From the NCBI GenBank assembly GCA_028715625.1, contig JAQURL010000001.1, positions 36,345-100,344 on the forward strand: DNA of 64,000 nucleotides, in the 5' to 3' direction. The first letter of the stretch is position 1; every line of letters starts with the position of its first letter. Source of the DNA: Candidatus Margulisiibacteriota bacterium. Lineage in GTDB: Bacteria; Margulisbacteria; Riflemargulisbacteria; GWF2-35-9. Of this stretch, positions 16,210 to 16,493 are shown one piece after another. Under the pieces are notes generated by a model, which worked only from the letters and a program-made list of their open reading frames with translations, ran no database searches and was not told where the DNA came from. The translations under genes were made by a program, and so were the position numbers.

Positions 16210-16231
16210 TGGTGCGAGTGGAGGGACTCGA
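16210..16231. repeat. 22-bp direct copy of the tRNA-Leu 3' end (identical to 16411..16432)
   Basis: tggtgcgagtggagggactcga occurs twice, about 200 bp apart, bracketing a GC-rich segment. Confidence 0.7.
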
Positions 16232-16410
16232 GTCATTGCTTCGCTCGTCTATCCTGACTAGCTCGCTATGACCAAGTTCTCGTCACTTCCGCTCCCATCC
16301 TGGTCGCTTTTCCTCGCACTTGCTCGGCGTTCCTCGACTGTTCGAGTCCCGGCTTTCATTCCCATCTGCCAGCCAAGTAAGAAGCCGATTTATCAGGCGA
16401 ACACGCAAGC

Positions 16411-16493
16411 TGGTGCGAGTGGAGGGACTCGAACCCCCATGCCGAAGCACTAGATCCTAAGTCTAGCGTGTCTACCAATTCCACCACACTCGC
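16411..16493 (-). tRNA. tRNA-Leu (anticodon TAG)
   Basis: Reverse complement GCGAGTGTGGTGGAATTGGTAGACACGCTAGACTTAGGATCTAGTGCTTCGGCATGGGGGTTCGAGTCCCTCCACTCGCACCA: long variable arm, anticodon loop CTTAGGA, encoded CCA. Confidence 0.85.

Follow-up and report, generated by a model that had tools for sequence, protein, structure and literature searches.

Intact tRNA-Leu and tRNA-Gly genes followed by displaced copies of their own 3′ ends: possible remnants of integrative elements in a Margulisbacteria genome

In a 64-kb window of the genome of an uncultured member of the Margulisbacteria (the window being the whole stretch of DNA that was analysed), two adjacent tRNA genes, tRNA-Leu and tRNA-Gly, are each followed by a short, G+C-rich insert and then by a second, displaced copy of their own 3′ end. 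At both loci the intact tRNA thus lies upstream and the tRNA 3′ fragment downstream of the insert. With a probability of roughly 0.55, we regard the two loci as what remains of integrative elements after decay, namely stubs without an integrase that resemble the cis-mobilizable elements (CIMEs), in which attL and attR are kept and the integration genes are lost (PMC5704250). tRNA gene fragments left by integration are pervasive in prokaryotes (PMC9897764). The mechanism class is known, and the present instance is new but ordinary; what sets it apart is how small the stubs are and that they occur at two adjacent tRNAs.

The tRNA-Leu(TAG) gene is intact, has an encoded CCA end, and is located on the minus strand at 16411-16493 (found by ARAGORN and, with 60.3 bits, by the Rfam tRNA model). 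The 22-mer TGGTGCGAGTGGAGGGACTCGA is present in exactly two copies in the window, at 16210-16231 and at 16411-16432, and a third copy was not found in the 64 kb with up to three mismatches permitted. Because both programs place the tRNA gene at 16411-16493, the copy at 16411-16432 is the true 3′ end of tRNA-Leu including its CCA, as the preliminary description had stated. This attL-like copy (minus strand) corresponds to tRNA nt 55-76 by exact match and in the Rfam alignment, and it comprises the T loop from nt 55 onward, the 3′ strand of the T stem, the 3′ strand of the acceptor stem, the discriminator base, and CCA. The attR-like copy at 16210-16231 (also minus strand) is a displaced tRNA-Leu 3′ fragment, identical at 22 of 22 positions and located downstream of the tRNA in the direction of transcription. 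The perfect 22-bp duplication about 200 bp from the tRNA end, which had been the starting claim, is therefore exact: the copies are 201 bp apart from start to start, and a repeat of this kind was seen in none of 100 dinucleotide shuffles.

When read along the minus strand, the locus consists of tRNA-Leu ending in CCA, 179 nt of non-coding DNA, the 22-nt fragment, a 20-nt spacer with the ribosome-binding site GAGGGG, and finally the ATG of metG. The latter gene (methionine–tRNA ligase; 14558-16189, minus strand) was identified through the Pfam families recorded for an identical protein and through its name in the source, and its Shine-Dalgarno sequence is found at 16193-16198. As the Shine-Dalgarno sequence and the start codon follow directly after the displaced fragment, the original order would have been tRNA-Leu, 20 nt, and metG. 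Neither a promoter nor a terminator was found inside the Leu insert by a consensus scan; tRNA-Leu, the insert, and metG are therefore probably transcribed as a single unit. It was also observed by eye that the CCCUC of the displaced fragment (T-stem 3′ strand) is complementary to the GAGGG of the metG Shine-Dalgarno sequence 25 nt downstream (16193-16231), a pairing that reaches 7 bp when wobble pairs are counted. Judging from this complementarity, the displaced fragment could occlude the ribosome-binding site of metG.

The Leu insert itself (16232-16410, minus strand) is 179 bp long and non-coding. It had been called GC-rich, which holds: its G+C content is 54.7%, compared with 35% for the intergenic and 37.7% for the coding DNA of the window, and it comes near the value of the tRNAs (56.6%). 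On the tRNA-sense strand 63% of its bases are purines. Secondary structure on the minus strand had been suggested for checking at both loci. In the Leu insert, the minus (tRNA-sense) strand folds more stably than shuffled sequences (z = -3.1 for the whole insert, -3.1 and -3.7 for the halves), whereas the plus strand reaches z = -0.7 as a whole and -0.2 and -2.4 for the halves. On the minus strand, the first 89 nt are predicted to form a four-way junction, which represents 39% of the ensemble. Neither strand of the Gly insert, in contrast, folds significantly better than shuffles (z = -1.8 and -0.9).

Further features of the Leu insert recall parts of a tRNA or of a recombination site. The sequence GTTCGAGTCCC is a perfect reverse complement of the 11-nt T-loop core of tRNA-Leu. 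A search for GGTTCGARTCC with up to one mismatch yielded four matches in the 64 kb, which are the three tRNAs and the plus-strand site at 16339-16349 in the insert. The inverted T-loop-like fragment as a whole covers 16339-16364 (plus strand), starting with this 11-nt perfect inverted repeat and extending to ...TTCCCA, where the spacing to CCA is one nucleotide away from the canonical one. At 16309-16338 (minus strand), three phased direct repeats of 10 nt with the consensus nnCGAGsAAn (GTCGAGGAAC, GCCGAGCAAG, and TGCGAGGAAA) are present, with CGAG at insert positions 75, 85, and 95. The tetramer CGAG is found six times in the insert where 1.2 occurrences are expected, an excess (uncorrected P ~0.001) that is not compelling because a correction for 256 tetramers is needed. 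The repeats could be putative protein-binding (arm-type) sites. Tandem repeats were not found in the Leu locus.

The companion case at tRNA-Gly, which the preliminary description had mentioned, is real and turned out to be larger than described. The tRNA-Gly(GCC) gene is intact (12362-12437, minus strand; ARAGORN and Rfam), and the repeat comprises 54 nt, namely the last 19 nt of the tRNA followed by 35 nt of flanking DNA, with 50 of the 54 positions identical. The tRNA-side copy (12327-12380, minus strand) consists of tRNA nt 58-76 (12362-12380) and 35 nt of downstream flank, which carries a hairpin TAGAA..TTCTA. The distal copy (12159-12212, minus strand) consists of the displaced tRNA-Gly 3′ fragment (12194-12212) and the native flank with a hairpin TGGAAA..TTTCCA, and it ends precisely at the TAA stop codon of a convergent BT1-family transporter gene. 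Enclosed between the two copies is the Gly insert of 114 bp (12213-12326, minus strand), of which 63% is purine on the tRNA-sense strand and whose G+C-rich core (12213-12306) has a G+C content of 56.4%. Including one repeat, the Gly unit measures 168 bp and its Leu equivalent 201 bp. An inverted D-arm-like motif, GACTAGCTCAG, is present in the Gly insert with a match of 10 out of 11.

The differences between the two Gly copies are unevenly distributed. None falls into the 29 nt in and beside the tRNA part, while four fall into the 25 nt of the distal flank (Fisher P = 0.04); over the 35 nt of the flank arm, identity is 89%. By our calculation, the absence of any difference from 29 nt has a probability of ~0.006 if divergence were uniform at ~16%. 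Two of the four differences form a compensatory pair in the hairpin stem (G-C to A-T), and a third one affects the stop codon of the neighbouring gene, which is TAA on the host side and appears as TGA in the element-side arm. The split of 0/29 against 4/25 suggests two non-identical partners that crossed over in a shared core and does not fit the in-place decay of a plain duplication.

Both arrangements were reproduced base for base in Logan contigs (L001 and L215) of sequencing run SRR22315506. As these independent contigs agree with the window, and as the assembly k-mers exceed the repeats in length, the Leu and Gly sequences are real and the repeats are not an assembly artefact of the window. 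The contigs L001 and L215 end inside tRNA-Leu and tRNA-Gly, which indicates that the assembly graph branches at the tRNA bodies.

The relationship between the two inserts is less clear. The motifs GCTTCG and ACTAGCTC are common to both and stand in the same order, as had been described, and the inserts agree in purine content (63% on the tRNA-sense strand) and in G+C content (~55%). The suggested pairwise alignment of the whole inserts, however, did not rise above chance, since 90 of 500 dinucleotide shuffles scored as well in local alignment (P ~0.18), and permissive gaps brought the value to P = 0.06. Whole-length local alignments of Gly with Leu, Gly with Ser, and Leu with Ser were not significant in either orientation. 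A comparison restricted to the 40 nt abutting the displaced fragment, GTCATTGCTTCGCTCGTCTATCCTGACTAGCTCGC in Leu and GTCCTCGGCTTCGACTAGCTCAGC in Gly, gave P ~0.005 with a window and an end that were chosen post hoc. Because both were picked after the motifs had been seen, this similarity is taken as suggestive only, and the case for homology between the Leu and Gly inserts is weak.

Neither insert contains a credible ORF (spurious ones of at most 61 aa are present), and terminal inverted repeats are absent from both. No integrase, recombinase, or transposase was found in either insert or in the 30 ORFs of the window that were scanned with Pfam. Likewise, no Rfam 15 family was detected in either insert: only the tRNAs reach the gathering score, and at E ≤ 10 nothing credible beyond the tRNAs, and no second tRNA, was obtained at the two loci. 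Several more specific origins were rejected. An origin by tRNA-primed reverse transcription, prompted by copies of 19-22 nt of the tRNA 3′ end that end in the T loop, is not tenable because the Gly repeat runs 35 nt past CCA and a mature tRNA cannot supply the flank. The Gly insert does not represent the 3′ end of a BT1-like gene of the donor, as its translations are unlike BT1 C-termini. The idea of a CsrA sponge was dropped since GGA motifs are not enriched (P = 0.17-0.84). A MITE or another IS-derived element is at odds with the absence of terminal inverted repeats, with duplications of 22 and 54 nt, and with the absence of further copies from the window and from 215 fetched loci.

No further copy of either insert was found in the window, in 215 fetched loci, in phage and plasmid records, or in IMG/VR. 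Hence, nothing shows an active, multi-copy mini-element, which had been one of the two explanations offered at the outset; the other one, integrase scars, is better supported. As far as the searched collections reach, the lack of further copies is also one of the outcomes that the preliminary description had named as speaking against its idea. In IMG/VR, TGGTGCGAGTGGAGGGACTCGA has 15 matches, all of which are complete phage tRNA-Leu genes and not attP sites, while the Gly 19-mer and a 22-mer from the Leu insert have none and a 15-base motif pattern matches at chance level. A matching attP or a related element was not detected in phages, plasmids, or IMG/VR. Concerning descent from an ICE, IME, or prophage family, no similarity was found in phage or plasmid records and no attP-like copy in IMG/VR.

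A survey of tRNA 3′-end copies, as proposed in the preliminary description, covered 165 tRNAs in 1.57 Mb and counted copies outside a tRNA at a distance of up to 3 kb. Only tRNA-Leu and tRNA-Gly were recovered, that is, two of the three tRNAs in the window as opposed to none of the 162 tRNAs in ~1.5 Mb of other loci, most of which belong to phage arrays. This contrast makes the recurring mechanism that had been put forward plausible, but it is no proof. NCBI lists the identical MetG and BT1 proteins under a 'Candidatus Margulisbacteria bacterium' MAG (locus tags PHV30_...). Genome and metagenome scans and homologue searches yielded only distant relatives: the closest ones of MetG and BT1 are 71-72% identical and come without a tRNA at the orthologous place, and the best MetG relatives, at 65-71% identity, likewise lack a tRNA in their vicinity. 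Moreover, no tRNA adjoins the BT1 orthologues in other Margulisbacteria, and a close homologue of the 433-aa neighbour was not found. The exact MetG and BT1 proteins occur only in sequencing run SRR22315506; since all exact-protein look-ups lead to this one run, the organism has apparently been caught in a single sample.

A third case at tRNA-Ser was considered and rejected. No copy of its 3′ end was found within three mismatches, a candidate remnant at ~23811-23832 was no better than hundreds of random 22-mers, and the end similarity gave P = 0.07 and 0.2. The surroundings of this gene have features of their own. In the interval 23501-24002, tRNA-Ser(GGA) is directly followed by a hairpin with a 13-bp stem (CAGTCTTCGCT...AGCGAAGACTG) and by a G+C-rich stretch of ~170 nt. 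Further on lie a gene of the XRE HTH family (23501-23722) and small ORFs for membrane proteins without a Pfam match. After mnmE, an intergenic segment of 213 bp (21717-21929) forms the most G+C-rich non-coding stretch of the window (56%, with an 80-nt peak of 72%); no Rfam match was obtained for it, and either foreign DNA or a structured RNA is conceivable. A repeat of ~62 nt, at 21846-21907 and 22284-22344 (72-86% identical), stands immediately upstream of two ORFs without a Pfam match and holds a hairpin (GGCTCTC..GAGAGCC and GGCGCTCT..GAGAGCC), which could make it a shared regulatory or RNA element. The region from mnmE to tRNA-Ser may be the remnant of an island. A few kilobases from tRNA-Ser, the ORF at 26424-27704 has AAA_15 and AAA_21 (AbiEii/OLD-like) ATPase domains and is a possible defence gene. 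Elsewhere in the window, an imperfect tandem array with units of 9, 12, and 15 nt (TGCTGGTGC...) is present at 10055-10174, where no long ORF is listed; its minus strand would encode an Ala/Pro-rich peptide of low complexity.

The reading of both loci as integration stubs builds on the position of the repeats within the tRNA genes. According to the Rfam alignments, both repeat boundaries are inside the 7-nt T loop, at nt 54/55 for Leu and nt 57/58 for Gly, and both repeats run through CCA. Integrases are said (an account from 2002 attributed to Williams) to use the anticodon loop, the T loop, or the 3′ end as sublocations of tRNA genes, and the identity blocks reportedly measure ~17-45 nt as a rule. 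The incoming DNA, presumably circular, would have brought along a version of the tRNA segment that extends from the T loop to CCA, together, in the case of Gly, with a related copy of the downstream flank. Campbell-type recombination with the resident tRNA gene inside the shared block would have rebuilt an intact tRNA from the 5′ part of the host and the 3′ part of the element, which would be attL, and would have pushed the original 3′ end of the host downstream as an orphan fragment, which would be attR. Most of the integrated element would have been lost later, leaving a Leu stub of 179 bp and a Gly stub of 114 bp with no gene and no integrase. The empty Leu site would accordingly have had the 3′ end of tRNA-Leu joined directly to TTACAATTTATGAGGGG, and the circular attP junction of the Leu element would have read ...GCGAAGCAATGAC-TCGAGTCCCTCCACTCGCACCA-GCTTGCGTGTTCG.... 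That a tyrosine-type integrase performed the recombination and that a larger element was deleted afterwards are both steps that we infer. The additional inverted T-loop match and the phased 10-nt repeats in the Leu insert would fit the debris of att sites and protein-binding arms, and the similarity of the 40-nt ends would be expected if both stubs derived from related elements.

Several known systems share parts of this architecture, and each differs from it in some respect. In the attL/attR elements formed by tyrosine integrases (prophages, genomic islands, ICEs, and IMEs), the repeat is likewise the 3′ part of a tRNA, starting in the T loop and ending at or beyond CCA, with an intact tRNA on one side and an orphan fragment on the other; the identity block with diverged arms at Gly also corresponds to them. 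Their repeats, however, are separated by kilobases, as opposed to 114-179 bp without an integrase or any other gene here. CIMEs, too, are segments without an integrase that lie at a tRNA 3′ end and are bounded by the two att copies, but those described extend over kilobases and can be traced to a known ICE or IME family. The present stubs have no recognisable parent, and at ~115-180 bp they are at least 10-fold smaller than described CIMEs and far smaller than genomic islands. The tRNA gene fragments reported by van der Gulik et al. (2023, PMC9897764) are partial, non-functional 3′ copies near a canonical gene that were attributed to integration as well, yet those examples flank islands of 9-23 kb or larger, whereas here the flanked segments are tiny and G+C-rich and the fragments belong to two neighbouring tRNAs. 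MITEs and other miniature non-autonomous elements are similarly small and non-coding with direct target duplications at their flanks, but these duplications have 2-10 nt in contrast to the 22 and 54 nt (one of them imperfect) found here, and neither terminal inverted repeats nor multiple copies were found for our inserts.

Important to weigh against the stub reading, next to the lack of an integrase in the window ORFs scanned and of a parent element in the collections searched, is that the cutting of two independent elements to such similar small sizes needs explaining. The element-side arm at Gly, moreover, is like the flank of the host itself, which is unusual for a promiscuous attP. With their high G+C content and purine skew, and with the strand-specific predicted fold of Leu, the stubs have more in common with a structured RNA that is transcribed than with decaying filler in a genome of 37% G+C. 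One alternative is that the inserts are non-autonomous miniature integrative elements of ~170-200 bp that retain nothing but att sites and binding sites, are moved in trans by an integrase encoded at another place in the genome, and may carry a small structured RNA co-transcribed with the tRNA. It is unlikely, and yet the least improbable of the alternatives. It would account for the same architecture at comparable lengths (201 and 168 bp with one repeat counted), for the alike remnant-side ends (P ~0.005, post hoc), for the common composition of 63% purine and ~55% G+C, and for the strand-specific folding excess (z of about -3) and phased 10-nt repeats of the Leu insert; the perfect identity of the Leu repeats moreover suggests a recent event. 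It suffers from the absence of more copies in the window or the searched collections, from a whole-insert similarity at chance level, from the lack of an integrase among the 30 window ORFs scanned with Pfam, and from the Gly insert, whose folding is not significant (z = -1.8 and -0.9) and which, like its counterpart, matches no Rfam family. Slightly more unlikely is an origin without any integrase, in which homology-facilitated or RecA-mediated recombination with foreign DNA of a related strain used the conserved tRNA 3′ end as an anchor. Either through one crossover with a circular or concatemeric fragment of small size or through illegitimate joining on the other side, the anchor would have been duplicated and downstream sequence of the donor inserted. 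The Gly locus is its best argument: the element-side arm is a homeologous version of the host flank (89% over 35 nt), with the hairpin kept by a compensatory change and TGA in place of TAA, which points to a related genome as the donor rather than to a phage attP. The shared block of Leu, on the other hand, has 22 nt and unrelated flanks and is thus a very short substrate for RecA; both junctions fall into the T loop, as an integrase would explain and random illegitimate joining would not; and the Gly insert is unlike the C-terminus of a BT1 orthologue, which is expected beyond the stop codon in a related donor.

A touch less probable again is the more far-reaching version of the trans-mobilised elements, namely an undescribed class of gene-less mini-elements of ~170-200 bp with an integrase acting in trans, the T loop as target, a regenerated tRNA 3′ end, and a purine-rich, structured RNA co-transcribed with the tRNA; the structured RNA of Leu would then sit between the tRNA and metG. 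A local error of replication or repair, by template switching or slippage with the gap being filled from elsewhere and partly with inverted tRNA sequence, is improbable. The 11-nt perfect inverted T-loop core in the Leu insert and the inverted D-arm-like GACTAGCTCAG in the Gly insert (10/11) are what such an event might leave behind. Beyond these short pieces, however, the inserts match neither their own tRNAs nor the rest of the window, an identity block with a diverged arm as at Gly is not expected from copying in place, and the same architecture would have had to arise from errors on two independent occasions. Least credible of all, and largely refuted, are a decayed tandem tRNA pseudogene of which only the 3′ end survives and an assembly artefact. 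Tandem tRNA genes are common, which lends the former some appeal, as does the prediction of a four-way junction in the opening 89 nt of the Leu insert. Local alignment of the inserts with the tRNA 5′ parts nevertheless stays at or below the shuffle mean (P = 0.77-0.96), no second tRNA appears at E ≤ 10, and it is implausible that a fragment remained identical at 22 of 22 positions while the 5′ part decayed to randomness. An artefact is contradicted by the independent assembly, which reproduces both loci, and by 22-nt repeats shorter than the assembly k-mers.

If trans-mobilised mini-elements or RNA cassettes of this kind were true, they would be new and would represent an integrase-dependent counterpart of MITEs. 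If the loci are ordinary scars, the finding is mainly an annotation note and a sign that mobile elements once passed through tRNA genes of the Margulisbacteria, a candidate phylum that has hardly been sampled. It would further show that such scars can shrink to ~100-200 bp with both att copies intact, a point of interest for island-finding tools, which assume a spacing of kilobases. For the organism itself, the position of the Leu scar inside the probable tRNA-Leu/metG transcription unit means that it may affect the expression of metG.
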